Below are positions 28,072 through 62,421 of a stretch of DNA of 64,000 nucleotides, in pieces (positions within the stretch are counted from its first letter, which is position 1; the number at the start of each line of letters is the position of its first letter). The position numbers were made by a program, and so were the translations under genes. Origin of the DNA: Patescibacteria group bacterium (GTDB taxonomy: Bacteria > Patescibacteriota > Patescibacteriia > UBA9570); assembly GCA_041660305.1 (NCBI GenBank), contig JBAZWO010000002.1, positions 196,739 to 260,738 on the forward strand, read 5' to 3'. Below the pieces are notes generated by a model. The model worked only from the letters and a program-made list of their open reading frames with translations, searched no databases and was not told where the DNA came from.

Positions 28072-28078
28072 AAAATAT

Positions 28079-29188
28079 TTAGTAACTAACTTTAGACTTA
28101 TCAGCTGTTGGTACTAATTCTATCCAAGTTTGCCCAGGATTAAAAGTAAATTCAGCACCAGTGTCATCATAGAATAATGTTCTATCGCCCCGCTGCTCCT
28201 TTTTCCAGGTACCAGCCTTACTAATGCCATCTTGTACTAAAATCGCTTCTCCAGTACCAATGGTATTCATTTCTAATCTTCCAGATTGTTGATCAATAAC
28301 AGTAGTATCAATATATTGTATCACAATGTTTTTAGCTTTAATTTGTTCATTATTATTAACATCACGATGTTCGCTTTCACCATTCCAACGTAAGTAACTA
28401 TTACTATCTCTGTCATAGCGCCAATCTACTAAATAATTTTTATTAGAATAATATATTACCAACGGTTTGGTAGTAGTTGGTCGGCTTTCCTTTTTTAAAT
28501 TAGTTTTAAATTTGTAAGGTTGATAAGCACCTGTTTTATTATTTAATTCTAGGTCTCTCAAGGCTAATGCTAATAATTCTGTATTGCTAAATAAGGTGTG
28601 CTCCATAGCCACATTCAAAGCCGTATCACGATAAAAATAATTAGAATAGCTAAATTGGTTTAAATCAGTAACATAATTACTAGAATTTAACACGCCCAAA
28701 GCTTGTGGACTACCACCTACATGTACATAAATGCCTTTATACTCTTCTGCTAGATCTACAAAATAAGCTCGCGCACTGCGAATGGGTCCAATTTTATCAA
28801 CCGCTGTTTTACTAGCATATATCGCCATAAATCTAGTAATACCACCTTCGGCCAAAGCTTCGTATATCAGATTTGCTTCAGTTAAACCAGCTTGTGGACG
28901 AATTGAAGCTAAATTTTCTATCATTACAGCTACTGGCAAAATGTTGCTTTCATTAGCCGGCACTGGAATGCCATCGATTTGTCTAGCTACCGGCTCTGTG
29001 ACGGTTACAATAGCGGTGTTAGTATTAACAATAGGTGGTGTAGTTTTTGGTTTATTAAGATTAATAATAGCTACAGCCATACCAATAATGGACAAGCCTA
29101 CAATGGTGATTAAAATAATTATTTGGGTACGTTTGTTGGTTTTGATATGAACAATAGCACTATTAATTAATTCTTGTGCTTTACCCAT
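28079..29188 (-). CDS. DUF3048 (YerB-like) membrane-anchored protein, paralogue 2
   Basis: PVAVMIENLASIRPQAGL...EGGITRFMAIY...GPIRSARAYF. It is a tandem paralogue of 26965-28071. Confidence 0.8.
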   Translation of the reverse strand: MGKAQELINSAIVHIKTNKRTQIIILITIVGLSIIGMAVAIINLNKPKTTPPIVNTNTAIVTVTEPVARQIDGIPVPANESNILPVAVMIENLASIRPQAGLTEANLIYEALAEGGITRFMAIYASKTAVDKIGPIRSARAYFVDLAEEYKGIYVHVGGSPQALGVLNSSNYVTDLNQFSYSNYFYRDTALNVAMEHTLFSNTELLALALRDLELNNKTGAYQPYKFKTNLKKESRPTTTKPLVIYYSNKNYLVDWRYDRDSNSYLRWNGESEHRDVNNNEQIKAKNIVIQYIDTTVIDQQSGRLEMNTIGTGEAILVQDGISKAGTWKKEQRGDRTLFYDDTGAEFTFNPGQTWIELVPTADKSKVSY

Positions 29189-32487: not shown

Positions 32488-32778
32488 ATGTTAAATACCA
32501 GCCAAGATATTTTATACTTAACTGTAGCTGCTTGTGTAGCAGCTTTTACTGTTACTTTAATCTGGATTATGTACTATATTGGTCAAATTACCAAGCAAAG
32601 TAATGATATGTTAGCTGATTTTAGAAAGAAATTAGAAGAGCTAGATGAAACAGTTAAAACTATTCAAACCAAAGTATCTCATTCTGTAGAAGCGTTATCA
32701 GCTATTAGTGACCAGGTTGCTTATGTAGTAGATTTTATCCGCAACATGTCTAAATCTAAGAAACGCGCGAAAAATTAA
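32488..32778 (+). CDS. Small TM plus coiled-coil protein (DUF948-like)
   Basis: 96 aa, with an N-terminal TM helix, a helical region and a basic tail. Confidence 0.5.
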   Translation: MLNTSQDILYLTVAACVAAFTVTLIWIMYYIGQITKQSNDMLADFRKKLEELDETVKTIQTKVSHSVEALSAISDQVAYVVDFIRNMSKSKKRAKN

Positions 32779-32890
32779 ATCCTACCTCATCCCCCTACCC
32801 CCTTCTCCTAAAAGGAGAAGGGGGTTTTAATTTAAAAAACTCCTCCTTTCCCCTATTAGGGGAAAGGAGGTTGGGAGGATAGAGGTAGAA
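32779..32890. repeat. Composite GC-rich hairpin element (family 1), acting as back-to-back terminators
   Basis: It fills the whole gap between two convergent genes. It opens with TCCTACCTCATCCCC. Hairpin 1 is CCCCCTTCTCCT/AGGAGAAGGGGG (32798-32824) followed by TTTT. Hairpin 2 is CCTCCTTTCCCCT/AGGGGAAAGGAGG (32842-32870), with a T-run on the minus strand. It closes with GAGGTAGA. Confidence 0.7.
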
Positions 32891-33409
32891 TTAATTCTGA
32901 TTCCCTTTCTTAATCGCCTCAATAATTGGTGATGCTGGATTTAAACTTTGCCAAAATGAAATTTGATCACGGTTAATAACAATATAGTTATATGGTTTAT
33001 GAACATCATCTACTAAACGTTTTAGTGATAAACCACTAGCGGTAACATTATTATCATTACTATTTAAATTATCATTTGAATTATCTGCTGTTTCTGTATT
33101 ATCAGCCGCAACATTAGTATTAACATTTGTAGCGGCAGCCTGCGTATCAGTTTGTTGTAAATAATATACATCCGTTAGTACGTATGTATTTATACCATAT
33201 TTGCTAAGACGGCCAAAAAACGTCTGGCCATTAGTTAGTGTTACTGCCTGATAAGTTGCGTTATCAAACAAAGTGCTATAGCGAATAGACAATAACCATA
33301 GTTTAGTAGCTGATAATAATATAATTAAAGCTACTAAGACGTAGGTAAGGCGTAATACACGATTAAGTGTAAACCATTTAGTTTTTACTTTACTTATTTC
33401 TTTTTTCAT
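32891..33409 (-). CDS. Hypothetical membrane-anchored protein
   Basis: 172 aa, with an N-terminal TM helix and an Asn/Asp-rich linker. Confidence 0.5.
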   Translation of the reverse strand: MKKEISKVKTKWFTLNRVLRLTYVLVALIILLSATKLWLLSIRYSTLFDNATYQAVTLTNGQTFFGRLSKYGINTYVLTDVYYLQQTDTQAAATNVNTNVAADNTETADNSNDNLNSNDNNVTASGLSLKRLVDDVHKPYNYIVINRDQISFWQSLNPASPIIEAIKKGNQN

Positions 33410-36848: not shown

Positions 36849-37952
36849 ATGAAAAAGATTAAAGTTCAAGCTGCTCAGCAAATCCAAAGACACTATACTC
36901 CATTAGTAATTATTTTCATTGGTGTGACCGTACTAATTGGTTTGTTGGTTTATTATTTAGCTTTTAACAAAACTACAATTACTATTCATACAGCGCCAGT
37001 AGCTGAAACGCAAACCTTCTCTTATTCTAATGATCAGCTAGATGCGGTTTTAGTTAATACCAATTTAACTGCTATTGAATTCACTTATTCTGATATTTCT
37101 GAATCAACGCCTGTGCCTAGTACAGCGCGTGGTACAGTGGTGATTGAAAATCATTATTCAGCCGATCAGCCCTTAGTACGTACTACTAGATTATTATCTA
37201 CTGAAGACGTGTTATTTAGAACCGATAAAACAGTAGTGGTGCCATCTGGTGGATCGGTTACCGTGCCAGTTTACGCCGATGAACCAGGCGAAACCGGTAA
37301 TATTCCACCTAGTAAATTTGAAATTGTAGCGCTTTGGGCCGGGTTAAAAGATAAAATATATGCTACTAGCCAAGCAGCTATGACTGGCGGGGTGATTAAT
37401 GAAAGCATCTTAACTCAAAATGATATGGCTAATGCTAAATTAGCAGCCGAGACTGCTTGGCGAGAACAAGCTAGTACGGCTTTAAATAAATTAGCTCAAA
37501 CCGAAGCTACTGGTATTACACCGGATTCTTTAAGTATTAACAATTTAAAACAAACTACTAAGCCAACTAGTGCCGGTGAAACAGCTAGTACGATTACTGT
37601 GACTACTTCTGGTACCGCCTTAGCTTTAGCTTTTAATCAGGCTAAATTACTAAACGTGTTAGCTAAAGAACAGCCTGCTGTTACATTTCAAGCAGATACT
37701 CTCACTTACCAAGTAATACCCACTGATGGAACTAATGGTACAGTCACCGGTGCAATAACCTATACCAAAACATTGCAAAATTCAGATATTGACAAATCAA
37801 AGTTAACTGATAAAACTAAGACACAAATTATAGATTATTTACGACAGCAACCCGGCGTCCAAACTGTAGAAGTTGATTTGTGTCCCTTTTGGCTAAGTAC
37901 CATACCAGACTACTGGATTAATAAAATTAATATAACTATTGAGCCAACCTAA
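36849..37952 (+). CDS. Hypothetical membrane-anchored protein (possibly a baseplate-J-like fold)
   Basis: N-terminal TM helix. The segment GTVVIENHYSADQPLVRTTRLLSTEDVLFRTDKTVVVPSGGSVTVPVYADEPGETGNI resembles baseplate J/gp47-type repeats. The function is not supported further. Confidence 0.45.
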   Translation: MKKIKVQAAQQIQRHYTPLVIIFIGVTVLIGLLVYYLAFNKTTITIHTAPVAETQTFSYSNDQLDAVLVNTNLTAIEFTYSDISESTPVPSTARGTVVIENHYSADQPLVRTTRLLSTEDVLFRTDKTVVVPSGGSVTVPVYADEPGETGNIPPSKFEIVALWAGLKDKIYATSQAAMTGGVINESILTQNDMANAKLAAETAWREQASTALNKLAQTEATGITPDSLSINNLKQTTKPTSAGETASTITVTTSGTALALAFNQAKLLNVLAKEQPAVTFQADTLTYQVIPTDGTNGTVTGAITYTKTLQNSDIDKSKLTDKTKTQIIDYLRQQPGVQTVEVDLCPFWLSTIPDYWINKINITIEPT

Positions 37953-39705
37953 TTATATGCCTAAAGACGATTTAGAAAAAATACGACATTCCTGTGAACA
38001 CGTATTTGCCCAAGCAATAAAAGAATTGTATGGAGATAATATTACATTAGCCGTAGCTCATATTTCTGCTGATGGTTTTGCTAATGACGCTAAATGGGAG
38101 CAATTACCCTCGCCCGCTGATTTACCTATTATAGAAAAGAAAATGCAAGAAATTATTCAAGCTGATTTACCGATTGTGCAAAAAGAAATATCTATCGCTG
38201 AAGCGAGAAAGTTATTTGCCAACAATCATTTTAAATTAGAGTGGGCAGAACAGTGGGCCGCTCAAGACAAAACATTAACAGTTTATTGGACGGGCGATAA
38301 ATATGTAGATTTATGCAAAGGGCCGCATGTTGCCAGTACTGGGGCAATTAAAGCTTTTAAACTAATGTCTGTAGCCGGCGCTTATTGGCGAGCAGACGAA
38401 AACAACGAAATGCTCACCAGAATAAGCGGCGTAGCTTTTAATTCAAAAAAAGACTTAGCTGAGCATTTGCATAAATTAGAAGAAGCCAAACAACGCGATC
38501 ACCGTAAACTGGGCAAAGAACTGGATTTATTTGTGTTTTCTGATTTGGTTGGCGCCGGCTTGCCGCTCTGGACGCCTAAAGGCACGATTTTACGGGAAGA
38601 ATTAAACGATTATGTTTGGCAATTGCGCAAAGCCAGGGGTTATGAAAAAGTAACTATCCCTCATATCACAAAAAAAGATCTGTACGAAACTAGCGGTCAC
38701 TGGGCTAAATTCAAGAATGAATTATTTAAAATTACTACGCGCGAAGGCCATGAATTTGCCATGAAACCGATGAATTGCCCGCATCATACGCAAATTTTCG
38801 CACATTTACCGCGCAGTTATAAAGATATGCCGCAACGTTATGCCGAAACCACCATGGTGTATCGTGATGAACAGACCGGTGAATTATCCGGTTTATCGCG
38901 CGTGCGTTGTATTACCCAAGATGATGCGCACGTGTTTTGCCGGTCTAATCAAATTAAAGATGAGTTTTTCAAAGTGTGGGATATTGTAGAACAATTTTAC
39001 AGCTCCGTTGGTTTCCCTTTAACTATTCGCTTATCATTTCATGATCCAAAACATTTTGCCAATTATTTAGGCACGCCTGAGGTTTGGCAAAAAGCCGAAA
39101 CCGCTTTAGAAAATATCGCTAAAGAACGCGGCGCCGTTTATAAAATTGCCGCGGGTGAAGCCGCTATGTATGGCCCAAAAATAGATTTTATCTCTAAAGA
39201 TTCATTAGGTCGAGAATGGCAAGTAGCCACCATTCAGCTAGACATGAATTTGCCGGAGCGCTTTGATTTATTCTGCATTAATGAGCAAGGCGAACATGAA
39301 AGAATTGTGATGATACACTGCGCCATCATGGGCTCGATTGAACGATTTTCGGCTATAATGATTGAACACTTTGCTGGTAATTTTCCGGTTTGGTTAGCGC
39401 CCGTACAAGTACAGTTATTAACTGTATCTGAAAAACACGTTGCTTATTGTGAGAATTTAGCTAAACAATTTACAGTAGCTGGCATTAGAGTAACAATAGA
39501 TAGTGATAATGAAACGATTGGTAAAAAAATTCGTAAAGCGACTCAACAAAAAATTCCCTACTTATTAGTAACTGGTGATAAAGAAATTGAATCTGGTAAA
39601 TTAGCCATTAGAAAACGTGGTGCAAGAGAAGCAATTATGATGGATAAACAGGAGTTTGTGGAGTATGTTACTGATAGAATCAAAGCTAAATCGTTGAATC
39701 ACTGA
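37939..39705 (+). CDS. thrS: Threonyl-tRNA synthetase lacking the N-terminal TGS domain
   Basis: It begins at the editing-domain HSCEH motif. Class II core has FRDEQTGELSGLSRVRCITQDDAHVF. The probable start is the ATG at 37957. The last codons lie in a family-2 repeat. Confidence 0.9.
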   Translation: MSQPNYMPKDDLEKIRHSCEHVFAQAIKELYGDNITLAVAHISADGFANDAKWEQLPSPADLPIIEKKMQEIIQADLPIVQKEISIAEARKLFANNHFKLEWAEQWAAQDKTLTVYWTGDKYVDLCKGPHVASTGAIKAFKLMSVAGAYWRADENNEMLTRISGVAFNSKKDLAEHLHKLEEAKQRDHRKLGKELDLFVFSDLVGAGLPLWTPKGTILREELNDYVWQLRKARGYEKVTIPHITKKDLYETSGHWAKFKNELFKITTREGHEFAMKPMNCPHHTQIFAHLPRSYKDMPQRYAETTMVYRDEQTGELSGLSRVRCITQDDAHVFCRSNQIKDEFFKVWDIVEQFYSSVGFPLTIRLSFHDPKHFANYLGTPEVWQKAETALENIAKERGAVYKIAAGEAAMYGPKIDFISKDSLGREWQVATIQLDMNLPERFDLFCINEQGEHERIVMIHCAIMGSIERFSAIMIEHFAGNFPVWLAPVQVQLLTVSEKHVAYCENLAKQFTVAGIRVTIDSDNETIGKKIRKATQQKIPYLLVTGDKEIESGKLAIRKRGAREAIMMDKQEFVEYVTDRIKAKSLNH

Positions 39706-39740
39706 TGTCACTGATAAATTCTGACAACACAGATAAATAC
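39694..39740 (+). repeat. Family-2 AT-rich element, half copy
   Basis: TTGAATCACTGATGTCACTGATAAATTCTGACAACACAGATAAATAC. It is homologous to the arms of the element at 43933-44072, and similarity extends upstream to about 39672 (GATAGAATCA). Confidence 0.6.
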
Positions 39741-40280
39741 TTTGTAAAAAATAGCATTTTAATTTTTTTTGGCGTATCTTTGGCTAGTTTTATTATAGCG
39801 CTTGTTGTTATGATTAAACTTAATAAACCACCCGCCGAAATTATTTTTATCGAGCATAACTTAAATATTGAACAAAGATACAACAGAAACACACCCTCGA
39901 ACAATGATGTGCAAGTGGATCTTAATCAAAACCTTTGTCGAGTTACTTATCACCGTGACAAAAACAATAATACAATTAATGGCAAAACAAAAATTTACAA
40001 AGCTACTTTAGCTGTACTGGCAAATAATGTATATCCGTGTTATTTATTAGATATAAATAACATTCCTTACCAATATGAGTACTTCCAGATCATTAACATT
40101 GATAAACTGGAAACAGTTAAAATTAAATTCGGTGATGAAATTATAGAAATAAAAACTAACGCAACCTGGACAGGGACGTATTCAGATACAGAATATATTT
40201 ACCACCATGAAATCATTAATCATGGTAAAGTAAAATATGAACATGACTCTGATATTGATAAATATCCCGGTAAAAATTAG
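39705..40280 (+). CDS. Hypothetical membrane-anchored protein
   Basis: 191 aa with one TM helix. The first ~12 codons are encoded by the family-2 repeat. Confidence 0.45.
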   Translation: MSLINSDNTDKYFVKNSILIFFGVSLASFIIALVVMIKLNKPPAEIIFIEHNLNIEQRYNRNTPSNNDVQVDLNQNLCRVTYHRDKNNNTINGKTKIYKATLAVLANNVYPCYLLDINNIPYQYEYFQIINIDKLETVKIKFGDEIIEIKTNATWTGTYSDTEYIYHHEIINHGKVKYEHDSDIDKYPGKN

Positions 40281-40282
40281 GC

Positions 40283-41251
40283 TCAAGAAAAGTTTTTCAC
40301 AATCTCTTTGTTCCCCGCTACCATAGGCGCTTTCTCGTGTAAACTAGTTGGCACAATATCTAAAATGTTTTGCGTGCCATCGGTAGCATAGCCGCCGGCT
40401 TGTTCAACGATCATAGCTAATGGCTTTAATTCATAATTCAAGCGCAGTTTTGCTGTTTGTTTTACAGCATCGTCATAAGGCCGAAAATATAAGCCACCTT
40501 TTAATAAATTCCTATGAATATCGGCTACCAGTGAACCAATATGGCGTGAGGTAGCTTTTGGATTATTTATTTTAAAATCCTCTAAAAATTTTCTTGAGCG
40601 TTCATCCCACGTTCTGGCATAAGCTTCATTAGCCGAATAAATATTACACGTTTGTGGAATAGTAATGTTATCGTGCGACAATAACCATTCGCCTAAACTT
40701 TGATCTAAGGTAAAACCATGTACACCATGGCCGGTGGTATAAACCAACATGGTGCTAGAACCGTACAAAATATAACCGGCCGCCACTTGCGTGTTGCCGG
40801 CTTGCAAAAAATCCGCTTCGCTGACTGCTTTGGTCATATTCAGACGTTCGTGAATAGAAAAAATCGTGCCGATAGACACATTGGAATCTATATTAGAAGA
40901 ACCGTCTAAAGGATCAAACGCAATTACATATTTAGCTTGCTTGGCGGCCGGCAAAATAACTATGTTTTCTTCTTCTTCAGAAGCCAGTGCCGCAAAATGC
41001 TCGGTTTTAGATAAATAATTTTTACATAATTCGTTGGCCAGTACATCTAGCTTTTTTACAGAATCACCAGAAGTATTCTCTAGTCCAGCCTCGCCTAAAA
41101 TATTCGCCAAACCGGCTTTATTAACCGCGCGAGAAATCACTTTGCCAATTACCCCAATATCCAATAAAATCCGCGAAAATTCACCGCTACCGCCGCAAGT
41201 TTTGGCTTCGTCTAAAACAAACTGGGAAAGCGTGGGATGATGTAGGCGCAT
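40283..41251 (-). CDS. fbp: Fructose-1,6-bisphosphatase class I
   Basis: FDPLDGSSNID motif, with GEFSRILLDI in the N-terminus. 322 aa. Confidence 0.9.
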   Translation of the reverse strand: MRLHHPTLSQFVLDEAKTCGGSGEFSRILLDIGVIGKVISRAVNKAGLANILGEAGLENTSGDSVKKLDVLANELCKNYLSKTEHFAALASEEEENIVILPAAKQAKYVIAFDPLDGSSNIDSNVSIGTIFSIHERLNMTKAVSEADFLQAGNTQVAAGYILYGSSTMLVYTTGHGVHGFTLDQSLGEWLLSHDNITIPQTCNIYSANEAYARTWDERSRKFLEDFKINNPKATSRHIGSLVADIHRNLLKGGLYFRPYDDAVKQTAKLRLNYELKPLAMIVEQAGGYATDGTQNILDIVPTSLHEKAPMVAGNKEIVKNFS

Positions 41252-41256
41252 GATAA

Positions 41257-41655
41257 TTAATTATTCTTAATAAAATTATCCATTGTTCCTTTGCTACAAT
41301 CGTATTTTTGTTCGCCATTGTTATTGCCGGATTTTTGTTCCAAAATTTGAGCACAAGCACAGCCTTGCGTATCGGTTAAAAAATAGTTACTGGCTACTAA
41401 TAATTTTGTTTTTGGATCAGTAGTCATAAACCGTTCACCGCCTAGCCAAGCATAATGCTTTTCTAGCGGATTAGCATCAAAATCAGTGCCTAAACACATG
41501 TCTGTATCATCCGTTACGCCATCATTATCTGCGTCATTTTCTTCGTCTGGCGGCGCAATAACAGCGGCTTGCGCTTTAAATTGCCCGGCAAACATAATTG
41601 TCATAACCAACAGCACGACCCCGCTAATTAATATATTTATCTTATTTTTTATCAT
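41257..41655 (-). CDS. Small secreted Cys-containing protein with a thrombospondin-type-3-like Ca-binding motif
   Basis: Signal peptide, a DADNDGVTDDTD motif and a strong RBS (AAGGAGG) upstream. Confidence 0.55.
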   Translation of the reverse strand: MIKNKINILISGVVLLVMTIMFAGQFKAQAAVIAPPDEENDADNDGVTDDTDMCLGTDFDANPLEKHYAWLGGERFMTTDPKTKLLVASNYFLTDTQGCACAQILEQKSGNNNGEQKYDCSKGTMDNFIKNN

Positions 41656-41790
41656 ATAGCCTCCTTAATTAATAATTAATTAGTTCTATTATTATAGCAA
41701 AAAAATATAAAAAAGTAAAACAAAAAATTAATAACCACTCACGTCAAAAACTCACCCTGAAACTTGGTTTGGTGAAATGCTTCTTGTCTA

Positions 41791-41825
41791 GCCATAAAAA
41801 CATGATACATTATCTGGCTAATTTT
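41791..41825. repeat. 35-bp direct repeat, copy 1 (3 bp beyond the sigma-gene stop)
   Basis: GCCATAAAAACATGATACATTATCTGGCTAATTTT matches 42567-42601 at 33 of 35 positions. Confidence 0.85.
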
Positions 41826-41828
41826 TAT

Positions 41829-42449
41829 TTATCTACTCGTTTTTTCAAGTTCTCGCACTCTAGCTTCAAGTGCTTGTTTAGCTCTATGCACTAATACATT
41901 TGCATGATTTGGCTTAATTTCTAATTCTTCTGCAATTTCTTTATTAGTTTGCTCGGCCGCTAACAATCTTAAAACTTCCCGAAGCCTTTCATCTTTAATA
42001 GTATCTACCGCTTTATCAAATAATTGCACCTGCTCGTGTCTTGCCGCTATTGTAAAAGGAGATTGGCTTGCTTGTGTGCCTAACGGCAGTGGAGCATCTT
42101 CTGCAATCGCTGATTCTTTCACCTCTCTCACAAGAGTGCCGCGTATTTTTTCATTAATACTTTTTCTTTTTGCAATCATAATTAACCATTTACTAATTGA
42201 TCTAATTCTACCGCTCCCTTGTTCATCAGATATTTTCTGCCATAATTCTTCAAAAACATCTTGTGCAATCTCTTCCGCTTCCGCTTGGCCAGATTCATTT
42301 CTTAAAAATTGATTAACATAGTGCACTAATCGATTAAAATATTTCCTGTGAATTTGTGCAAAAGCTACCTCGGCCTTTGCTTTATCATCTGAATATAACT
42401 CGCCAATAAGGTTGGCTTCATTTGGTAATGATCTATTTTCTACTGTCAT
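41829..42449 (-). CDS. ECF-type sigma-70 family RNA polymerase sigma factor
   Basis: Region 2 has AEEIAQDVFEELW. Region 4 has the HTH segment NKEIAEELEIKPNHANVLVHRAKQAL. No adjacent anti-sigma factor is recognisable. Confidence 0.8.
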   Translation of the reverse strand: MTVENRSLPNEANLIGELYSDDKAKAEVAFAQIHRKYFNRLVHYVNQFLRNESGQAEAEEIAQDVFEELWQKISDEQGSGRIRSISKWLIMIAKRKSINEKIRGTLVREVKESAIAEDAPLPLGTQASQSPFTIAARHEQVQLFDKAVDTIKDERLREVLRLLAAEQTNKEIAEELEIKPNHANVLVHRAKQALEARVRELEKTSR

Positions 42450-42637: not shown

Positions 42638-43936
42638 ATGCCTAACAAAACCTACTTTATCTGGCCATTGGGCTGCCAAACTAATAAATCAGACGGCGAA
42701 CGCGTAGCGGCTGTATTGGAGCGTTTAGGTTACAAACGCGTGCCAAACGATGATGAAGCGAATATTGTGGCGGTAATTGCCTGCTCAATTAGGCAATCGG
42801 CCGTAGATAGAATTTACGGCAAATTTAGAAAATGGGGCAGACGACAAAAAAGCGGCGAGCTGACTACCCTACTCACCGGCTGCTTACTGCCAGCTGATAA
42901 AACCAAACTAAATCCAAAGTTTGATTTAATTTTTGCCATTGAGGATTTGCCAAAATTGCCAGAATTATTAGCGCAAACTTCGCTTGAAGAACATGCAAAA
43001 CAAATCGATCAAATGGCTTATTTTGACATTGCACCAATTTCTGAATCACCTTTCCGCGCCTGGGTGCCGATTATGAAAGGCTGTGATAAATTTTGCACGT
43101 ATTGCGCCGTGCCGTATACCCGCGGCCACGAACGCTCTAGGCCATCAGCTGATATTATTAAAGAAGTAAAACGTTTTATCAAACAGGGCTTTAAAGAAAT
43201 TAATTTGCTAGGCCAAAATGTTAACTCGTATGGTTTAGATAAAAAGAATAACGAATTAACTTTTGCTAAGTTGCTAGAACAAGTAGCTAAATTACCGGGA
43301 GATTTTTGGCTACGATTTCACGCGCCGCATCCACGTGATTTTACAGACGATGTAATAGCCGTAATAGCCAAATATCCAAAAATCTGCAAACAAATTAATT
43401 TACCGGCTCAATCCGGCAACAATACCGTATTAAAACGCATGAACCGGCCATATACGTGCACACAGTACTTGACCTTGATTGACATGATTAAAACCGGTAT
43501 TCCAAATGTTTCGCTATCTACTGACATTATTGTTGGTTTTTGCGGTGAAACTGCCAAACAATTTTTGGATACAAAAACTCTCATGCAAAAAGTTAAATAC
43601 GACATGGCTTTTATCGCGCAATATTCTCTGCGCCCCGGCACTGTGGCCGCTAAACGCTTTAAAGATGATGTGCTAGAAGATGCTAAAAAAGACCGAGCAA
43701 TAACGTTAACAAAAATTCTTGAACAAACTTTTTTAGATAATCAAGAAAAAAATATTGGTAAAGTTGATAAAATATTAGTTGAACGATATTCCAAGGATCA
43801 CTGGCTTGGTAGAAATGAGCACTTTATTACCGTGGAATTTTCAGCACCAAAAACCGCCCAATTAATCGGCACATTTCAGCAAGTTAAATTAGAAAAAGTT
43901 GAGCCGTTTAGGTTTAGAGGGAAATTAATTACTTGA
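42638..43936 (+). CDS. miaB: tRNA methylthiotransferase MiaB (radical SAM MTTase)
   Basis: CDKFCTYCAVPYTRG radical-SAM cluster motif, an N-terminal UPF0004 Cys triad region and a TRAM-like C-terminus. Confidence 0.88.
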   Translation: MPNKTYFIWPLGCQTNKSDGERVAAVLERLGYKRVPNDDEANIVAVIACSIRQSAVDRIYGKFRKWGRRQKSGELTTLLTGCLLPADKTKLNPKFDLIFAIEDLPKLPELLAQTSLEEHAKQIDQMAYFDIAPISESPFRAWVPIMKGCDKFCTYCAVPYTRGHERSRPSADIIKEVKRFIKQGFKEINLLGQNVNSYGLDKKNNELTFAKLLEQVAKLPGDFWLRFHAPHPRDFTDDVIAVIAKYPKICKQINLPAQSGNNTVLKRMNRPYTCTQYLTLIDMIKTGIPNVSLSTDIIVGFCGETAKQFLDTKTLMQKVKYDMAFIAQYSLRPGTVAAKRFKDDVLEDAKKDRAITLTKILEQTFLDNQEKNIGKVDKILVERYSKDHWLGRNEHFITVEFSAPKTAQLIGTFQQVKLEKVEPFRFRGKLIT

Positions 43937-44072
43937 AACACAGATGTCGCAGATAGAATCACTGATAATTCTGATAAATACTGATGACACAGATAATTCA
44001 AATACAATTAAATTTAATTAATTGTATTTATCTGTGACATCATGAATTTTATCAGTGTAATCTGTGTTTCAA
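43933..44072. repeat. Family-2 miniature element with perfect 13-bp terminal inverted repeats
   Basis: TTGAAACACAGAT (43933-43945) pairs with ATCTGTGTTTCAA (44060-44072). The interior is an imperfect long palindrome around AATACAATTAA/TTAATTGTATT. It spans the whole miaB/pyrF convergent gap and contains both stop codons. Confidence 0.8.
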
Positions 44073-44827
44073 CGATTCTGTAAATACGCTTCCCAAGCTT
44101 CCTGTCGATATTTTCTAGCTTCACTTGCAGGATCATCTACCTTATAAATTCCACGGCCGACAATGAGCACGTCTGATCCGCCGGCAATGGCTTTGGCTGG
44201 GGTGTTGTATTGTTGCTTTAAGCCGTCTCCCCCGCCGCCAAATTTTACACCGGGCGTGAAGTTGATAAATTTTGGATCATTGATTAATTTTTTGGTGGTA
44301 ATAAATCCAAATACAAAATCATCATATTTTTTCGCCATCTCTATTGATGCTTGAGTGTATTCGCCTTTGGCTAGCGTGCCTTCTGGAGTCATTTCGGCCA
44401 ACAACAACAATCCCCGGCCTTTTGGCAAGCCCACTGCGCTCAAGCCTTCGATAATACCGGGACCCGGCACTGTATGCGCGTTAGTAATATCAGCCCAATC
44501 GACAATATGATAAATGCCTTGGGCGTATTGCATTTGCACGGTATTGCCAATATCGGCAAATTTACGATCTTCAAAAATTAAAAAATTATGTTTCTCTTTT
44601 AGTTTGATTAATTCAGTAACAAAATTTGATGTAAAATCGGTAAGAATATCTATGTGTAATTTGGCCACACATATTTCTGACCCGATTTTATCTAAGATTC
44701 GCAAAATTTCTGCACCAGATGTTAAATCTGCCGCCACTGCTAAATTAGTTTTTTTTTCAATCATTATTTCCAGCAACTTTTTAGCCGTAGGGTTTTTGAC
44801 GTATTGTAAGCGTTGTTCAAGTTTCAT
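44069..44827 (-). CDS. pyrF: Orotidine-5'-phosphate decarboxylase
   Basis: FEDRKFADIGNTV motif and a DxKxxD-type N-terminal region. Confidence 0.9.
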   Translation of the reverse strand: MKLEQRLQYVKNPTAKKLLEIMIEKKTNLAVAADLTSGAEILRILDKIGSEICVAKLHIDILTDFTSNFVTELIKLKEKHNFLIFEDRKFADIGNTVQMQYAQGIYHIVDWADITNAHTVPGPGIIEGLSAVGLPKGRGLLLLAEMTPEGTLAKGEYTQASIEMAKKYDDFVFGFITTKKLINDPKFINFTPGVKFGGGGDGLKQQYNTPAKAIAGGSDVLIVGRGIYKVDDPASEARKYRQEAWEAYLQNR

Positions 44828-44834
44828 AAAATTT

Positions 44835-44894
44835 TACCTCTCCCTCTTTCCCTCTCCTAATAGGAGAGGGATGTCCGAAGGACAGGGTGAGGTA
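44835..44894 (-). repeat. Family-1 GC-rich nested-hairpin element (pyrE-pyrF intercistronic copy)
   Basis: The outer stem is TACCTCTCCC/GGGTGAGGTA. The inner hairpins are CCCTCTCCT-AAT-AGGAGAGGG and TGTCC-GAA-GGACA. Its reverse complement aligns colinearly with 55874-55937. Confidence 0.75.
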
Positions 44895-44897
44895 GTA

Positions 44898-45503
44898 TTA
44901 AATTTGATTATTTTTAATAAATTCCTGCACTTTATTGCACATGGCTTCATCAATTTTACCGGCAGTTTTCATAACTGTTAATACTTCGCTTAAAGTAATT
45001 ACGCTATGCAACTGATAGCCCTTGGCTTCTAGTTGCTTTTTACCGCCTTGCTCGCGATCTACCAACACCACAAAATCTTTAATCTTTAAGCCTTCACTTT
45101 CAAACGGAGCGGCGGTTTCAAACTTGGAAGCACCGGTGGTAATTAAATCGTCGATCACTAAACAAGTTTGGCCAGCTTTATATACGCCTTCAATTTTTTT
45201 CTTAGTGCCGTAATCTTTTACTTCTTTACGCGCATAAATCATTGGGGTATTTAATTCAATCGATAACACTGAAGCAATTGGCAAGGCCGTGTACGGTATG
45301 CCGGCCATTAAATCGTATTGAATGTTGTCTTGCGCAATTTTCTCTTTAAACGCCGCAATAATAGTTTTCATTACGCTTGGATAAGATACAATTACCCGTA
45401 AATCAATATAAATCGGCGATTTCATGCCCGATTTTAGCGTAAATTCCCCAAACTTTACCGCATTTATTTCGGCTAGTTTTAGGATTAATTCTTGATTGTT
45501 CAT
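44898..45503 (-). CDS. pyrE: Orotate phosphoribosyltransferase
   Basis: PRPP-binding motif CLVIDDLITTGAS. Confidence 0.9.
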   Translation of the reverse strand: MNNQELILKLAEINAVKFGEFTLKSGMKSPIYIDLRVIVSYPSVMKTIIAAFKEKIAQDNIQYDLMAGIPYTALPIASVLSIELNTPMIYARKEVKDYGTKKKIEGVYKAGQTCLVIDDLITTGASKFETAAPFESEGLKIKDFVVLVDREQGGKKQLEAKGYQLHSVITLSEVLTVMKTAGKIDEAMCNKVQEFIKNNQI

Positions 45504-45520
45504 AGTTTTTTATTAAATTA

Positions 45521-46408
45521 TTAATTATTTTTTTGTACCAAATACAATCCAAAAATTGTCATTATACCCCCTATAATTATATACCAAGTCATATTTTCAT
45601 GCAAAAAAATTATAGCTAAAATTACGGTAAAAACAGGAATAAATAATTTAAAGACAGAGGCTTTGGTAGCACCGATAACACTAACACCGTAATTAAATGC
45701 ACTAAAAGCAAAAGCGGTTGATATGGTACCAATTAAAAAAAGCCAAAGCCAATTGATTGCTGGTAATGAAAATAATTGTTGATAATCATTAAATAACAAA
45801 TTTATTACACCAATAATAATAGCACTGATTAAAAAAATATAAAAAGTAATTGTCCATGTATTATATTTTTGAAAATATTTTTTTAAATACACAATGGAAA
45901 AAGCCACAGACAAAGCTCCTAATATACCAAATATATAGCCAAAAAAACTATTGGAATGTAATAAATTAGAAAAATTTCCTCCTTCAGAAACTATAAAAAT
46001 TACACCAGTAAAAGCAACTATGATGCCTATGTAATTAATCATTTTATTTTTTTCCTTAATTAAAAACGGAGCTAATATTGCAATAAAAATTGGATTAGAA
46101 TTAATTAAAATTGAACCAATTGAAGCTGTAGAATATTTTGTGCATAAAATTAAAAACAGAGAAGAAAATACACCGTTTAATATAATTAAAATAAAGAGTA
46201 TAAAAAAATCATAGCTAAAAAATTTTATTTTATTTTTGCTTCTATATAAAAAATAGAACGGACAAAGGATTATGCCGGCAAACAAAAACCTAATAAATGC
46301 AATGTTTATCGCATTAACATTATCACAGAGCTTAATGAATAAATATAATGTTGACCAAGCTAACGGAGAAAAAAACAACGCTATTAAAGCTACTTTCTTA
46401 TTTTTCAC
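45521..46408 (-). CDS. EamA/DMT-family transporter
   Basis: 10 TM segments in two EamA-like halves. It is extremely AT-rich compared with the neighbouring pyr genes. Confidence 0.7.
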   Translation of the reverse strand: MKNKKVALIALFFSPLAWSTLYLFIKLCDNVNAINIAFIRFLFAGIILCPFYFLYRSKNKIKFFSYDFFILFILIILNGVFSSLFLILCTKYSTASIGSILINSNPIFIAILAPFLIKEKNKMINYIGIIVAFTGVIFIVSEGGNFSNLLHSNSFFGYIFGILGALSVAFSIVYLKKYFQKYNTWTITFYIFLISAIIIGVINLLFNDYQQLFSLPAINWLWLFLIGTISTAFAFSAFNYGVSVIGATKASVFKLFIPVFTVILAIIFLHENMTWYIIIGGIMTIFGLYLVQKNN

Positions 46409-46423
46409 TTTAAATTATATAAA

Positions 46424-47221
46424 TTAATATTTAATCTTTACCCCCGCCTTATCACGGTGATACTTCCCAAACTCTTTTAATGATAAAGCTTTTTCTCCGG
46501 AAATGACCGGGCCGCAGGTGCACATGGGTTCGCCGGAATTATCGATGCAACATTGGCCGCAGATGCCAACGCCGCATTTCATGAAGCGCTCCAAACTTAC
46601 TTGGCTCGGCACGCCATGGCGTGTGGCTACTTGAACCGCGGCGTATTCCATGGGCTCGGGGCCGCAAATACACACTATGGTTTTTTTACGTTGAACGGCG
46701 GTTAATTTATTTAACCGCTCTTCCAAAACGGCTGTAATATAGCCTTTATGGCCAGCGGAGCCATCATTGGTAGAAACGTAGGTATTACCCGGAAACTTCT
46801 TTGTGTAAAGTAATAATTTTTTAGTGCGGGCGCCCACTAATAACTCGCCTGTACACTTATCTTGCTTAGCTTGTTCTAGTAAATATGCTAACGGAGCCGC
46901 ACCATAACCGCCACCAACGGCAATAATATGCTGTTTTGATTGCCAAGTATAGGGCTTGCCAAATGGACCAGTAAAACCTAATTCTGCACCTGGTTTTAAA
47001 TTAAACAACGCTTCGGTAAACTTGTTAATTTTAAACACCACTAACGTAAAAGTTTTGCCATTATCGTTAGCAATCGAAAATGGTTTCTGATCGATACCTG
47101 GTATCCATAACATTACGAACTGACCAGGCTTAGAGCCTAAATTATTATAAGCAAATGTAAACGATTTTACATTCTCGGCTTCGTTTTTGATTTTTAATAA
47201 TGTGGTTGTACGCGGTTTCAT
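46424..47221 (-). CDS. pyrK: Dihydroorotate dehydrogenase 1B electron-transfer subunit
   Basis: FAD/NAD-binding fold plus the C-terminal 2Fe-2S motif CGVGICGQCC. Confidence 0.88.
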   Translation of the reverse strand: MKPRTTTLLKIKNEAENVKSFTFAYNNLGSKPGQFVMLWIPGIDQKPFSIANDNGKTFTLVVFKINKFTEALFNLKPGAELGFTGPFGKPYTWQSKQHIIAVGGGYGAAPLAYLLEQAKQDKCTGELLVGARTKKLLLYTKKFPGNTYVSTNDGSAGHKGYITAVLEERLNKLTAVQRKKTIVCICGPEPMEYAAVQVATRHGVPSQVSLERFMKCGVGICGQCCIDNSGEPMCTCGPVISGEKALSLKEFGKYHRDKAGVKIKY

Positions 47222-48138
47222 TTGTGTGCCTTTCCAATTAAATCACTTAATTTATTTATTTTCTTTTTCTTCATATATACTTCCATTTCTTTTACAATAT
47301 CACCAAATACTTTTTCACCGCGCCACCAGATGGCTGAACCAACTCCTACTAAACTGCCGCCGGCTAACATCATTTCTAAGGCATCTTCCCCGGTAGTTAC
47401 ACCGCCAGTAGCAATAATTGGCGCTTGAACAGCATTGTAGACATCCCACACGTTTTTCACGGCAATCGGTTTAAGGGCCGGACCGGATATGCCGCCAAAC
47501 TTATTGGATAATACCGGGCATTGTAAATTAACGTCAATCGTCATACCAGATACGGTATTTATAGCGGTAATAGCATCGGCACCGGCTTCGACACAGGCTT
47601 TGGCAATAGCGGCATTGTTCCAAGCGTTCGGTGAAAGTTTGGCGGCAATGGGAATGTGCTTTTTTTCGGCCACTTTTTTTACATAAGCTACAACTTTACT
47701 GGCAATTTCCGGACTATACGCTAATGGGATACCAAATTCATCCATTACATTTGGGCATGATAAATTGATTTCTAAAATATCAATCGGCGCGGTGCATAAA
47801 ATTTCGGACACTTTGGCAAATTCTTCGGCGCTGGTAGCAAATACACTGCCAATAATCGGTGCGGAACAAACACTCTTATATTCTTTCACCATATCTACCG
47901 ATTCTGTCACGCCAGGATTAGATAAGCCAACCGCGTTCATAAAATAATGCGGGTAGCCGGCCATGGTAGGGTTAGGATGCCCGGTTCTAGGCTCTAAAGA
48001 CACTGATTTCATAGTAACGCCGCCGGCGCCTAAATCCACACAGCGCTTTAAAGAAGCGGCCGTAACGCCTAATATGCCAGACGCTACTACAATGGGATTT
48101 TTAAATTTTACCCCGAGAAAATTGATAGTTGTGTTCAT
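47218..48138 (-). CDS. pyrD: Dihydroorotate dehydrogenase 1B catalytic subunit
   Basis: TIM-barrel DHOD motifs (GVTMKSVSLEPRTGHPNP, NLSCPN, GGISGPALKP). A 4-bp overlap couples it to pyrK. Confidence 0.9.
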   Translation of the reverse strand: MNTTINFLGVKFKNPIVVASGILGVTAASLKRCVDLGAGGVTMKSVSLEPRTGHPNPTMAGYPHYFMNAVGLSNPGVTESVDMVKEYKSVCSAPIIGSVFATSAEEFAKVSEILCTAPIDILEINLSCPNVMDEFGIPLAYSPEIASKVVAYVKKVAEKKHIPIAAKLSPNAWNNAAIAKACVEAGADAITAINTVSGMTIDVNLQCPVLSNKFGGISGPALKPIAVKNVWDVYNAVQAPIIATGGVTTGEDALEMMLAGGSLVGVGSAIWWRGEKVFGDIVKEMEVYMKKKKINKLSDLIGKAHK

Positions 48139-48142
48139 TGGG

Positions 48143-49486
48143 TTATATTAAAGCTTTTATTACTTTTTGCCAAATATTTATTTCGTTATTCAGCCATTTT
48201 TCTTCTTTTCGAACCTGCTGTTTTAATTGAGCTAACTGTAAGTTGCCGGCGGCGCCAATATGGGTTTTGGATTTGATATTTTTAACCGGGTCAATGGTGG
48301 CTAATTTATCTAAGTTATTAGCTACTTCCCGATAAGCATCGCGAAACGGCATACCGTCTTTTACCAAATCCAGCGCGTAATCGGCCGCGAATAGTTCCGA
48401 AGAAAACGCGTTAATGCATTTATCTTTATTTAATGTTAACACTGGCGTGACTAAATTCATGATTTTTACAGTATTAGCAAACAACGCCAAGCCTTTTAAT
48501 AACGGTTCTTTGGTAAGCTGACTATCACGGTTATAGCCAGATAATAACGTGTTCTGAATTTCCATGGTGGTTACTAAATAGCCCAACATCACTTTAACCT
48601 TGCCCCGAGTTAGTTCAAATACATCGCCGTTCTTTTTTTGCGGCATTAAAGACGAACCGGTACAGTATTCTTTTGGTAGTTCTATAAAGCCTGTTTCCGT
48701 CATGGAAAACACTAGCACGTCATTCGCAAATTTGGCTAATGTGCCCATGATTTGCGTAAGCGCAAACAATACATCCGCTTCTACTTTACCTCGACTGTAA
48801 GACACATACATAGAATTAATCTGCACCCGTTTAAAACCAAGTAGTTTGGTGGTATAAGCTCTATCTAGCGACATGTTCACGCCAAAACCGGCGGCACTGC
48901 CTAATGGATTCATGTCGTTAATCTCATAGGCAGTTTTGAGTAATTTTAGATCATCTAATAAGCTTTCAGCGTATTGTGATAACCACATACCAGCTGAAGT
49001 AGGCATAGCTCTCTGCATGTGCGTATAACCCGGCATAGGCACCCATTCGTATTTTTTAGCCAAAGCCAGTAAATTATCAACTAAAGCTAACGTATAACCG
49101 TATAATTCTTGAAGTTTATCTTTGGTATATAACCGTGTCATGGTTACTACTTGATCATTGCGGCTTCTGGCAGTGTGAATTTTTTTACCTAAATCCCCTA
49201 ACTCTTTTACTAAATGATTTTCAATAGCCGTGTGGCCGTCTTCATCTTCTAATTTAACAACAAATTTTCCAGCTTGCCATAAGGCTATAATTTTATTCAA
49301 CTCTTTTTTTAACGTGCTTAATTCTTTGTCTGTCAGCACGCCGATTTTCTTTAGCATCATCGCGTGCGCCATACTGCCATACACATCATAACAGATCATG
49401 TTTTGATCGAGCTCATGATCGTTCCCCACCGTGAACTCGATAATCTCTTTTTTTACGTTGTAGCCCTTTTGCCAAAGTTTTGCCAT
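48143..49486 (-). CDS. argH: Argininosuccinate lyase (fumarate-lyase superfamily)
   Basis: KLWQKGY N-terminus, HTARSRNDQV and GSSLMPQKKNGDVFELTRGK signature. Confidence 0.8.
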   Translation of the reverse strand: MAKLWQKGYNVKKEIIEFTVGNDHELDQNMICYDVYGSMAHAMMLKKIGVLTDKELSTLKKELNKIIALWQAGKFVVKLEDEDGHTAIENHLVKELGDLGKKIHTARSRNDQVVTMTRLYTKDKLQELYGYTLALVDNLLALAKKYEWVPMPGYTHMQRAMPTSAGMWLSQYAESLLDDLKLLKTAYEINDMNPLGSAAGFGVNMSLDRAYTTKLLGFKRVQINSMYVSYSRGKVEADVLFALTQIMGTLAKFANDVLVFSMTETGFIELPKEYCTGSSLMPQKKNGDVFELTRGKVKVMLGYLVTTMEIQNTLLSGYNRDSQLTKEPLLKGLALFANTVKIMNLVTPVLTLNKDKCINAFSSELFAADYALDLVKDGMPFRDAYREVANNLDKLATIDPVKNIKSKTHIGAAGNLQLAQLKQQVRKEEKWLNNEINIWQKVIKALI

Positions 49487-49490
49487 AGAT

Positions 49491-50471
49491 TTATTTATTA
49501 ATTCCTAAAGCTTTTAAGCCATTAATGGTAGTAATATTAACTAGCTGCTCTATATCGTAATAGCGACAAGTTTCTAAAAGAAAATTCAATTCTTCCCACA
49601 TACTGCCAGTAGTAAAAGGACAAAAATAGTCATGCACATTATCTGTGCCTAAACATACGTTAATGCCAGCGGCTACTAATTGTGGCACGGGGGCAATTTT
49701 ATTATGTACCGGTGCTAATTTATCTCGCAAATCTACTTGATCTAACATAGAACGGGGGCAAACAATTACGCTCATACCAGCTTCCTTTATTAATTTTATC
49801 ACTTCGTTCATATATTTATCAGACTGTGATGCCAAAGAACAAGCATGTACCGCATTTACTTTGCCTTCTAGCCCATGCTCAATTACTTTTTTAGCTAATA
49901 ATTCAGTATCTTTTTCATCGGGATCATTATTTTGATCAATATGTACATCTACTGTTTTATTATATTTTTTAGCTATCTTAAAAATGTAGTCTAAGTGTTC
50001 TCCTTGCCTAGGACGTTCCCGAGAAGGTAAACCACCTAGTACATCTACCATTGGTGCAGCTTTTTCAATCCAAACCTGTGCCTCAGGATTTAAGGCTCCT
50101 TCGAGTACTTGCGAACAGATTTGAATCGTTAATTTATCTTTATATTCTTCTTTGATAGCCAACGCTGCTTCAATACACATTAAACCTACAGTACTATCAA
50201 CATCAATATTAGTGCGACAATATTTTACACCTTGTTGTACCATACTATCCGCGCTAATCCGCATGCGCTCTTTAAGCTTTTCTAATGTATAACTAGCTTT
50301 AATTTTTGCCCATAAATCCCATTTTGTTTCCATGTCCGCCAGTGTTTGATTAAGGGTAGCTTCAGAAATAACATAAGCTTTATCGAAATGGGCATGGCAA
50401 TTTACAAAGCCGCCTTTGGCCTGAATTTTTTCTAGTAAGATAGCTTTGAGATCGTATGGTTGGTGGTTCAT
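49491..50471 (-). CDS. Cytosine-deaminase-like amidohydrolase
   Basis: VNCHAHFD, VDVHIDQNNDPDE and VCLGTDNV are colinear with E. coli CodA HIHLD, IDVHCDEIDDE and VCFGHDDV. Confidence 0.65.
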   Translation of the reverse strand: MNHQPYDLKAILLEKIQAKGGFVNCHAHFDKAYVISEATLNQTLADMETKWDLWAKIKASYTLEKLKERMRISADSMVQQGVKYCRTNIDVDSTVGLMCIEAALAIKEEYKDKLTIQICSQVLEGALNPEAQVWIEKAAPMVDVLGGLPSRERPRQGEHLDYIFKIAKKYNKTVDVHIDQNNDPDEKDTELLAKKVIEHGLEGKVNAVHACSLASQSDKYMNEVIKLIKEAGMSVIVCPRSMLDQVDLRDKLAPVHNKIAPVPQLVAAGINVCLGTDNVHDYFCPFTTGSMWEELNFLLETCRYYDIEQLVNITTINGLKALGINK

Positions 50472-62137: not shown

Positions 62138-62213
62138 TGGTCGGGGATACCAGATTTGAACTGGTGACCTCACGGTCCCGAACCGTGCGCGCTACCAACT
62201 GCGCTAATCCCCG
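62138..62213 (-). tRNA. tRNA-Pro (anticodon CGG), CCA encoded
   Basis: The reverse complement is CGGGGATTAGCGCAGTTGGTAGCGCGCACGGTTCGGGACCGTGAGGTCACCAGTTCAAATCTGGTATCCCCGACCA. It is a 76-nt cloverleaf with anticodon loop TTCGGGA. Confidence 0.9.
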
Positions 62214-62315
62214 CCTACGCTTTCGCTTCGCTACAGCTACGGCGGGCAAGCTCGCCCCGCTATGGCTTTAAAAAGAATAGCAAACATTACCCGGTTTAGA
62301 CAAGTATTTTAATAC

Positions 62316-62421
62316 TTGAATCACTGATTACACCCGCCTACCTCCTAAATCGGAGTACGGCGGGCAAGCAGATAAAATTTAATGATATTATCAGTATTTA
62401 TCAGAATTATCTGTGATTCAA
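62316..62421. repeat. Family-2 miniature element with TIRs, carrying a nested GC-rich hairpin
   Basis: TTGAATCACTGAT (62316-62328) pairs with ATCTGTGATTCAA (62409-62421), a 12 of 13 inverted match. In the right arm, 25 of 26 nt match 43960-43985. The left arm is interrupted by CCCGCC...GGCGGG (62333-62364). Confidence 0.75.

Follow-up and report, generated by a model that had tools for sequence, protein, structure and literature searches.

Introduction

Correia elements (CREE/NEMIS) of Neisseria are palindromic intergenic repeats of about 100-155 bp, bounded by terminal inverted repeats (TIRs) and co-transcribed with their neighbours; to our knowledge, their transposase is still unknown. [quoted passage not shown] In Coxiella burnetii, those insertions of QMITE1 and QMITE2 that affect functional genes are located at their 3' ends, with overlaps of 1-50 bp (PMC5896051). 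Here we describe a 140-bp hairpin element, copy A, which occupies the entire gap between the convergent genes miaB and pyrF in a stretch of 64,000 nucleotides from a Patescibacteria group bacterium (GCA_041660305.1, contig JBAZWO010000002.1, positions 196,739 to 260,738; the whole stretch is referred to as the window). An earlier note on this DNA had read the element as MITE-like and at the same time as a terminator acting in both directions. Copy A belongs to a dispersed multi-copy family of AT-rich, non-coding, hairpin-shaped elements; the MITE reading is broadly right, the terminator reading weak. In kind the element is ordinary, a non-autonomous repeat that is small and palindromic; its family is one that we did not find described, in a phylum for which we found no such family reported.

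Results

Structure of copy A

Copy A (43933..44072, no strand assigned) is bounded by TTGAAACACAGAT (43933-43945) and ATCTGTGTTTCAA (44060-44072), exact reverse complements over 13 bp, the window reading ...GGGAAATTAATTAC-TTGAAACACAGAT at the left end and ATCTGTGTTTCAA-CGATTC at the right end. Both flanking genes end inside these TIRs: the ORF (open reading frame) ends place the miaB stop at TGA 43934-43936 and the pyrF stop at 44069-44071, read as reverse complement. The interior is an imperfect palindrome with arms at 43933-43981 and 44024-44072, each of 49 nt and 73% complementary. At its centre lies an AT-rich stem-loop (44000..44029, no strand assigned; inverted-repeat search and RNA fold), in which AAATACAATTAA (44000-44011) pairs over a perfect 12 bp with TTAATTGTATTT (44018-44029) around a 6-nt loop. 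Besides miaB and pyrF, the ORFs that overlap the element are of 21-43 aa only. The exact TIRs, the stop codons within them, the long imperfect palindrome with its central stem and the lack of coding capacity had all been described in the earlier note, and all were borne out.

On the + strand the predicted RNA fold of copy A reaches -50 kcal/mol (z = -7.8), and on the - strand it reaches -48 kcal/mol (z = -6.9), with 0/200 shuffles as good in either case, and the element is the longest inverted repeat within 250 nt across the 64-kb window. Its sequence is identical in two independent Logan assemblies (L001, L002). A lone perfect 13-bp inverted repeat is, by a rough estimate, not rare in 64 kb at 36% G+C; the significance of copy A stems from its extended arms and its family membership.

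Resolved into arms, copy A is composite on the left and carries a single complete arm on the right. The outer, partial left arm (43933..43955, + strand; positions 1-26 of the arm hidden Markov model, HMM) consists of the terminus TTGAAACAC and the heptads CACAGAT and CGCAGAT, and holds both the miaB stop TGA and the 13-mer that pairs perfectly with 44060-44072. The inner, complete left arm, (TA)GAATCACTGAT-AATTCTGATAAA-TACTGATGACACAGATAA (43956..44000, + strand), matches positions 3-48 of the arm HMM (nhmmer, E = 1.1e-10; hmmalign). The complete right arm (44024..44072, - strand), read on that strand as TTGAAACACAGAT-TACACTGATAAA-ATTCATGATGTCACAGATAAATAC, matches positions 1-48 (nhmmer, E = 2.6e-12) and includes the pyrF stop. 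At 140 bp, copy A is within the size of MITEs (<500 bp), and like them it is AT-rich, has no coding capacity and is predicted to fold stably; its 13-bp TIR lies within the MITE range of about 4-30 bp, and the same terminus is found on all family copies.

A family of elements with heptad arms

The window contains two further copies. Copy B, a solo arm (TTGAATCACTGATGTCACTGATAAATTCTGACAACACAGATAAATAC; 39694..39741, + strand; nhmmer with the arm HMM, E = 5.3e-12), overlaps the end of thrS, the stop of which (39703-39705) is the TGA of the first heptad of copy B; it sits in the spacer ahead of an orphan gene that public gene calls begin at about 39810. A reading of copy B as the translated N-terminus of ORF 39705-40280 was dropped: the ORF is an orphan, and public gene calls place its start at residue 36. 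Copy C (62316..62421, no strand assigned; arm HMM match) is a full element with the termini TTGAATCACTGAT and ATCTGTGATTCAA, and the stop TAA (62407-62409) of a glycosyltransferase gene on the - strand falls within its right arm. Of the 27 occurrences of the motif CACNGAT/ATCNGTG in the window, 11 fall inside the 298 nt of copies A, B and C.

In copy C, a second repeat, the GC-rich hairpin CCCGCCTACC...ACGGCGGGCAAGC (62333..62369, + strand), interrupts heptad 2 of the left arm. As CCCGCCTAC...ACGGCGGGCAAGC, this hairpin occurs twice in the window, at 62210-62251 and 62333-62369, the former copy adjoining the 5' end of tRNA-Pro (62138-62213, - strand). Around copy C and the hairpin, two Logan contigs come to an end (L158, L159; L numbers are our labels for contigs and loci), which suggests that the hairpin region is multi-copy; contig breaks at the copy C region are the expected behaviour at a repeat.

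A metagenome contig collection was scanned with a pattern built from the window arms. Clear relatives were found on four contigs of JGI sample Ga0172379, once each in L065, L073, L096, L109 and L115 and twice in L131; a single contig of Ga0066640 also has one (L092). The Ga0172379 contigs thus carry at least seven arm-bearing sites in one other Patescibacteria population, the organism being placed by the source name of an identical Nramp protein; together with copies B and C, these sites bear on the copy-number check that the earlier note had proposed. The arm HMM recovers family copies at E = 1e-7 to 1e-14, and the elements range from 70 to 140 nt.

The consensus of the arm alignment is TTGAAWCACWGAT-DWYRC-WGATAAR-nTTC-TGATGACAC-WGATAA, followed by an AT-rich loop. 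Each arm consists of a TTGAAWCAC terminus and four CRCNGAT heptads, the GAT triplets 9, 12 and 9 nt apart; the heptads form two tandem modules of about 21 nt, and the central heptad base varies freely. The family boundary is sharp at (TT)GAAWCAC, with unrelated flanks between copies. One copy in L131 (120-186) appears, on our own reading of the sequence, to have the 1.5-arm form of copy A.

Gene stops overlap element termini in copy A (at both ends), copy B, copy C, L092, L131, L065 and L007. The stop is the first-heptad TGA in copy B, the TAA of GATAA in copy C, the TGA of TTGAA in L092 and a TAG in L131. Neighbouring genes share no functional theme, their products being MiaB, PyrF, ThrRS, glycosyltransferase, MgtE, Nramp, HrcA, MurJ, RsmB, GldL/GldM, DnaA and SppA.

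Pairing within arms and between arms was compared for the family. Single arms form no hairpin of their own (four arms; DNA fold -0.6 to -3.3 kcal/mol, z -0.4 to +1.4). Arm complementarity is 73.7% within elements vs 77.8% between elements, and the central base of heptads 2 and 4 is unpaired in 8/10 cases. Pairing is thus not maintained beyond conformity to the motif, which argues that the arm is recognised by its sequence, a protein being the simplest agent, and not that an RNA or DNA hairpin is under selection.

Occupied and empty sites

Synteny across miaB and pyrF is kept where MiaB is 69-75% identical, and six such relatives are without the element. Their junction measures -9 nt (an overlap) in L153 and L154, +3 nt in L155 and +8 nt in L058. 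In L055 the junction holds an unrelated spacer of 100 nt that has its own GC-rich hairpins (11297-11396), and in L056 (11331-11975) and L057 a helix-turn-helix (HTH)/Gp49 (HigB-like) toxin-antitoxin pair is inserted. No arm was found at the miaB/pyrF loci of L055, L056, L057, L058, L153, L154 and L155. The junction is repeatedly invaded in this clade. At the end of thrS, where copy B lies, relatives likewise leave little room: the gap is 2-19 nt in L055, L058 and L153, and L056 has an additional 74-aa ORF.

In the Ga0172379 population, an element in L131 lies between the Nramp stop and the CIRCE (controlling inverted repeat of chaperone expression) operator of hrcA, starting immediately after the host TAG. 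The corresponding site is empty in the Patescibacteria relative L160 (Nramp 81% identical, same gene order), where a 40-nt gap remains and the Nramp TAG is part of the CIRCE half TTAGCACTC. A second L131 copy, upstream of mgtE, is also absent from L160. The packing at this empty site is extreme in itself: at L160 11250-11285 the Nramp TAG lies in the left half of the CIRCE TTAGCACTC-N9-GAGTGCTAA of the hrcA-grpE-dnaK operon.

The third comparison is from Hymenobacter, where a complete hairpin element of about 132 nt (L007, 4475-4606; DNA fold z = -6.5) follows directly on the mgsA stop (TAT TGA). The close relatives L161 (SppA 97% identical) and L163 (94%) are without it, and L163 also reads TATTGA at the mgsA stop. 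Because the host alone reads TATTGA in L163, one end of the apparent TIR can owe its TTGA to the host; the far end of the L007 element carries its own TCAA. The element begins after host TTGA (L007 vs L163) and after host TTAG (L131 vs L160), an insertion point that derives from two comparisons only. At the same mgsA stop, L161 (2696-2900) and L163 (2704-2900) carry different long GC-rich palindromes in place of the L007 element; across these three close genomes, hairpin repeats from several families that are unrelated to one another gather at this hot spot.

The same design in other phyla

The cross-phylum scan took exact matches to a pattern fixing the first 23 nt, and most of the 145 matches are chance. 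An inverted 13-mer partner lies within 300 nt in 11/145 at <=2 mismatches and in 8/145 at <=1 mismatch (one duplicate-record pair included), where about 0.02 would be expected by our own estimate. Besides the Patescibacteria L092 and L131, these are Chitinophagales L005, Hymenobacter L007, Ignavibacteriae L024, Poribacteria L047 and L062 from an unplaced contig. The L005 element lies between gldL and gldM, inside the gldL-gldM operon. The L024 element (5182-5322) lies just downstream of dnaA and its terminator in an Ignavibacteriae metagenome-assembled genome, its right side being a fourfold 27-bp tandem repeat (CTGAATCGCAGATTACACTGATAAGGT on the - strand). Heptads in other phyla read CACGGAT, CGCAGAT, GCGGAT and similar. 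A scan of species-representative genome contigs, with the source species not among them, gave 52 single matches in many phyla against about 32 by chance on a rough estimate.

Four Hymenobacter genomes have a solo heptad arm (...CATCTGCACCATCTGTGATTCC) right against the ATG of sppA, at 4690-4739 in L007, at about 2950-2999 in L161 and L163 and at about 2960-3000 in L162. It is present even where the upstream gene differs, while its heptads turn over (ATCTGTG, ATCTGCG, ATCAGTG), and it may be a co-opted 5' element.

Terminator features

No T-tract follows the copy A hairpin on either strand (flanks GTTTCAACGATT and, on the other strand, GTTTCAAGTAATT), and a terminator scan gave no terminator-like site within copy A. 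Canonical intrinsic terminators are present in the same window at 32797-32825 and 32842-32870, back to back and one per gene at the convergent junction of ORFs 32488-32778 (+) and 32891-33409 (-). Each has a GC-rich stem of 13-14 bp and a T-tract: ACCCCCTTCTCCT-AAA-AGGAGAAGGGGGT then TTTT, and the opposite-strand counterpart then TTTTTT. Among the other family copies, one lies in a divergent intergenic or promoter region (L109) and others directly upstream of start codons (L073; L131, 120-186).

Flanking and neighbouring genes

The gene to the left of copy A (42638..43936, + strand) encodes a miaB-like radical-SAM methylthiotransferase (Pfam UPF0004 and Radical_SAM), its stop being TGA 43934-43936 of the left terminus; the product is named MiaB of a Patescibacteria group bacterium in public sources. 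The gene to the right is pyrF, for orotidine 5'-monophosphate decarboxylase (44069..44827, - strand; Pfam OMPdecase), which ends in the right terminus. The C-termini of MiaB and PyrF are at family-typical positions, without truncation or extension by copy A; the annotated stops are real and the proteins intact, and the spacer should be labelled a repeat rather than a terminator.

The TRAM domain (PF01938) was undetected in the window MiaB, and of its closest relatives (67-75% identity) the majority have none listed; it is present in most of the Patescibacteria homologues that are more distant. From 44069 to 50471 runs a set of pyrimidine-biosynthesis genes: pyrF, a phosphoribosyltransferase, a dihydroorotate dehydrogenase B pair and a dihydroorotase-like amidohydrolase, to which relatives (L055-L058, L153-L155) add aspartate carbamoyltransferase and carbamoyl-phosphate synthase. 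Patescibacteria are usually described as being without de novo nucleotide synthesis. The interval between thrS and miaB (39705-42449) holds extra small genes compared with syntenic relatives and is an indel hot spot. These are the orphan ORF from about 39810, for which 1.84 billion representatives yielded no real homologue, an ORF of 132 aa without Pfam match and a sigma-70-like/GerE protein (41829-42449). A Baseplate_J-domain protein gene (36849-37952) stands between dnaE and thrS here and in all syntenic relatives, an odd location for a protein resembling a phage baseplate component, and tandem DUF3048 paralogues of 368 and 369 aa occupy 26965-29188.

Discussion

Mobility and its rivals

On balance, copy A and its relatives are probably MITE-like non-autonomous repeats in the broad sense, moved in trans and landing on gene ends. 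An element of this kind, mobile or once mobile, would be moved by some enzyme that probably reads the heptad array as a sequence motif and not as a hairpin. It would land at extreme gene ends, typically directly 3' of a stop codon, leaving no clear target duplication. Because the termini read T-TGA-A inward, the element would fit a junction without intergenic space, keeping or supplying each gene's stop; where convergent genes abut or overlap, presumably only those insertions survive that keep the stop at its native place. The family itself, its architecture, its absence from the orthologous sites examined in relatives and its overlap with stop codons are direct observations; mobility, the mode of recognition and this tolerance of stop codons are what we infer. 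The size, the lack of coding capacity, the TIRs, the multiple copies and the empty orthologous sites all agree with the MITE assignment of the earlier note; two other defining traits of MITEs, a consistent target duplication and an autonomous partner, were not found in the elements and loci examined.

Several observations weigh against this reading. No consistent target-site duplication flanks the 12 elements examined, three of which have non-adjacent 7-mers (p about 0.03-0.09). No transposase, integrase or Y1 gene was found by Pfam in the scanned or synteny-annotated window ORFs or beside any examined copy, and a search of arm pairs 0.4-6 kb apart gave none that encloses a transposon-like gene-sized insert. 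The one high-scoring pair, from copy B to the right arm of copy A, encloses syntenic housekeeping genes instead of a transposon; in other loci, a few pairs have weak scores. The autonomous partner with the same TIR that the earlier note had suggested looking for was found neither in the window nor in about 600 kb of related loci. Copies within one genome are only about 70-80% alike, with no sign of recent activity here, and their density is modest (three in about 73 kb, with none in an extra 9 kb upstream). The Patescibacteria empty sites come from relatives at just 69-81% protein identity; of the insertion polymorphism sought for copy A, empty orthologous sites in relatives were found but no strain-level empty allele, L001 and L002 being identical to the window. 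In the cross-phylum set, similarity over the first 23 nt of the pattern is by construction, and retention of the sppA solo arm could mean selection for a host function over selfish persistence.

Of the rival explanations, one concerns the mobilising enzyme and is a sub-hypothesis within the mobile-element reading: movement as single-stranded DNA (ssDNA), the element being a hairpin like a REPIN or a PATE (palindrome-associated transposable element), carried by an HUH Y1 transposase of the RAYT or IS200/IS605 type and inserting 3' of a TTGA-like tetranucleotide, with TCAA as its own 3' end. IS608 cleaves after TTAC at the left and after TCAA at the right. The missing target-site duplication would suit such movement, as would the start after host TTGA or TTAG in two comparisons with TCAA at the other end, the folding of the whole element as one hairpin, and the solo and 1.5-arm forms, which recall the singlets and decayed doublets among REPINs. 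However, single arms form no hairpin, whereas such hairpins define both REPs (repetitive extragenic palindromes) and the ends of IS200/IS605; complementarity between the two arms of an element is not maintained, a GTAG-type tetranucleotide is missing, and no Y1_Tnp gene was found in any scanned locus. We give this mode of movement limited credence. The behaviour of the arms also bears on the view that the elements are functional cis-elements under selection, in which the CRCNGAT heptads would be a binding-site array for a DNA- or RNA-binding protein and would have spread by recombination or conversion, not by transposition. Heptad cores are kept while central base and linkers vary, in Patescibacteria as in other phyla; arms conform to the motif and not to one another; the sppA-ATG solo arm is kept in four Hymenobacter species despite heptad turnover; and copies lie upstream of mgtE, hrcA, rsmB and murJ. 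This view is nevertheless quite unlikely, given neighbour genes without a common function, close relatives that manage without the element at the same sites, a likeness to DnaA, Fur, IHF (integration host factor), CRP and ARG boxes that fails by eye, and no candidate binding protein identified.

A dedicated, lineage-specific bidirectional terminator or mRNA 3'-end stabiliser, the fallback of the earlier note, would account for the position of copy A exactly between convergent genes, for a hairpin that is very stable on both strands and for the several copies that follow stop codons, and such a role has been proposed for MITE-type hairpins, e.g., SPRITE (PMC10969869). Yet the element has neither T-tract nor terminator-like site, and the genome has canonical terminators with GC stem and T-tract at 32.8 kb; copies occur in a divergent promoter region (L109), before start codons (L073; L131, 120-186) and inside the gldL-gldM operon (L005); no compensatory change keeps the arms paired; and four relatives cope with a junction of -9 to +8 nt. 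A dedicated role of this kind is highly improbable, and the bidirectional terminator of the earlier note finds no support in the sequence; weak termination or an RNA-stabilising side effect may accompany the hairpin as a by-product. The mobile, MITE-like repeat remains the preferred reading. Beyond it, and more speculatively, the elements might form a superfamily across Patescibacteria, Bacteroidota, Ignavibacteriota and Poribacteria, whose CRCNGAT arrays would be read by a widespread protein, either a new no-duplication transposase or recombinase or a conserved host factor, docking on stop codons (TTGA/TTAG), with some solo arms, e.g., that of sppA, co-opted as cis-regulatory elements; we regard this extension as rather doubtful.

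Patescibacteria (candidate phyla radiation, CPR) genomes are small and tightly packed, and a family that sits on stop codons illustrates that selfish DNA can persist at near-zero intergenic space. The family also marks assembly break points. As the cultured Hymenobacter isolate BT190, named H. puniceus, shares the terminus and the heptad design, the mobilising or binding protein is open to experimental search.

Comparison with known systems

As the earlier note had held, the TIR is not recognised from described families: no match to the terminus was obtained in Rfam or in the literature searched. In the window and 18 related loci only tRNAs reach the Rfam gathering threshold, and sub-threshold matches, including those for the element under permissive settings, are generic miRNA-precursor hairpins. 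The literature search did not return the terminal and heptad strings in any relevant context, nor anything relevant linking Patescibacteria with MITEs or REPINs. Comparison with plasmids by blastn gave AT-rich matches at E = 0.1 only; a viral contig scan gave five matches, judged to be chance. Resemblances to a DnaA box, a Fur box, an IHF site, CRP half-sites, an ARG box, omega-repressor heptads and the CRISPR repeat end ATTGAAAC were rejected by eye, as were the ends of IS30, IS903, Mu and Tn7, these comparisons with transposon ends serving as leads only. A DNA-uptake sequence was rejected, the heptads being confined to elements.

Like Correia elements, the family consists of palindromic intergenic repeats of similar size bounded by TIRs; in its way of working it resembles both these and the Coxiella QMITEs. 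Correia elements differ in their 26-bp TIR of other sequence, TA target duplication and IHF site, none of which was seen here; the flanks of the copies are not TA/TA.

With REP sequences and REPINs of the RAYT system, the family shares its extragenic position, inverted doublets that form one hairpin, singlets, the absence of a target duplication and a location at convergent gene ends (PMC2817692); in our elements, too, inverted doublets fold as one hairpin, singlets are present and a target duplication is absent. REPs are, in contrast, imperfect palindromes of 20-40 nt with a 5' GTAG-type tetranucleotide, usually in more than 100 copies (PMC2817692), whereas single arms of the present family are unfolded, the terminus is TTGAA and not GTAG/GGAG, and no RAYT gene was found in the scanned loci. 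The subterminal hairpin at each end that marks PATEs derived from IS200/IS605 was not seen either.

SPRITE is likewise a small mobile repeat downstream of genes, for which a role as portable terminator has been proposed (PMC10969869); it resembles an intrinsic terminator, whereas the present element is a long AT-rich imperfect stem without T-tract. Among eukaryotic MITEs, Emigrant and the pogo-like Lemi1 are examples in which a TIR is joined to reiterated short subterminal motifs that are bound by the transposase (PMC1636448), which recalls the heptad arms. As these are eukaryotic elements with a TA target duplication, and their autonomous partner is known (PMC1636448), the resemblance does not go beyond architecture.

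The QMITEs of Coxiella are of unrelated sequence; QMITE1 is of 300-400 bp with direct repeats of 2-3 nt, the host is gammaproteobacterial and heptad arrays are not described (PMC5896051). They resemble the present family in that a gene can take its stop or its last codons from the element and that no cognate transposase has been identified (PMC5896051). The overlap of a repeat with stop codons and gene 3' ends is thus not new in kind, and has its precedent in the Coxiella QMITEs.

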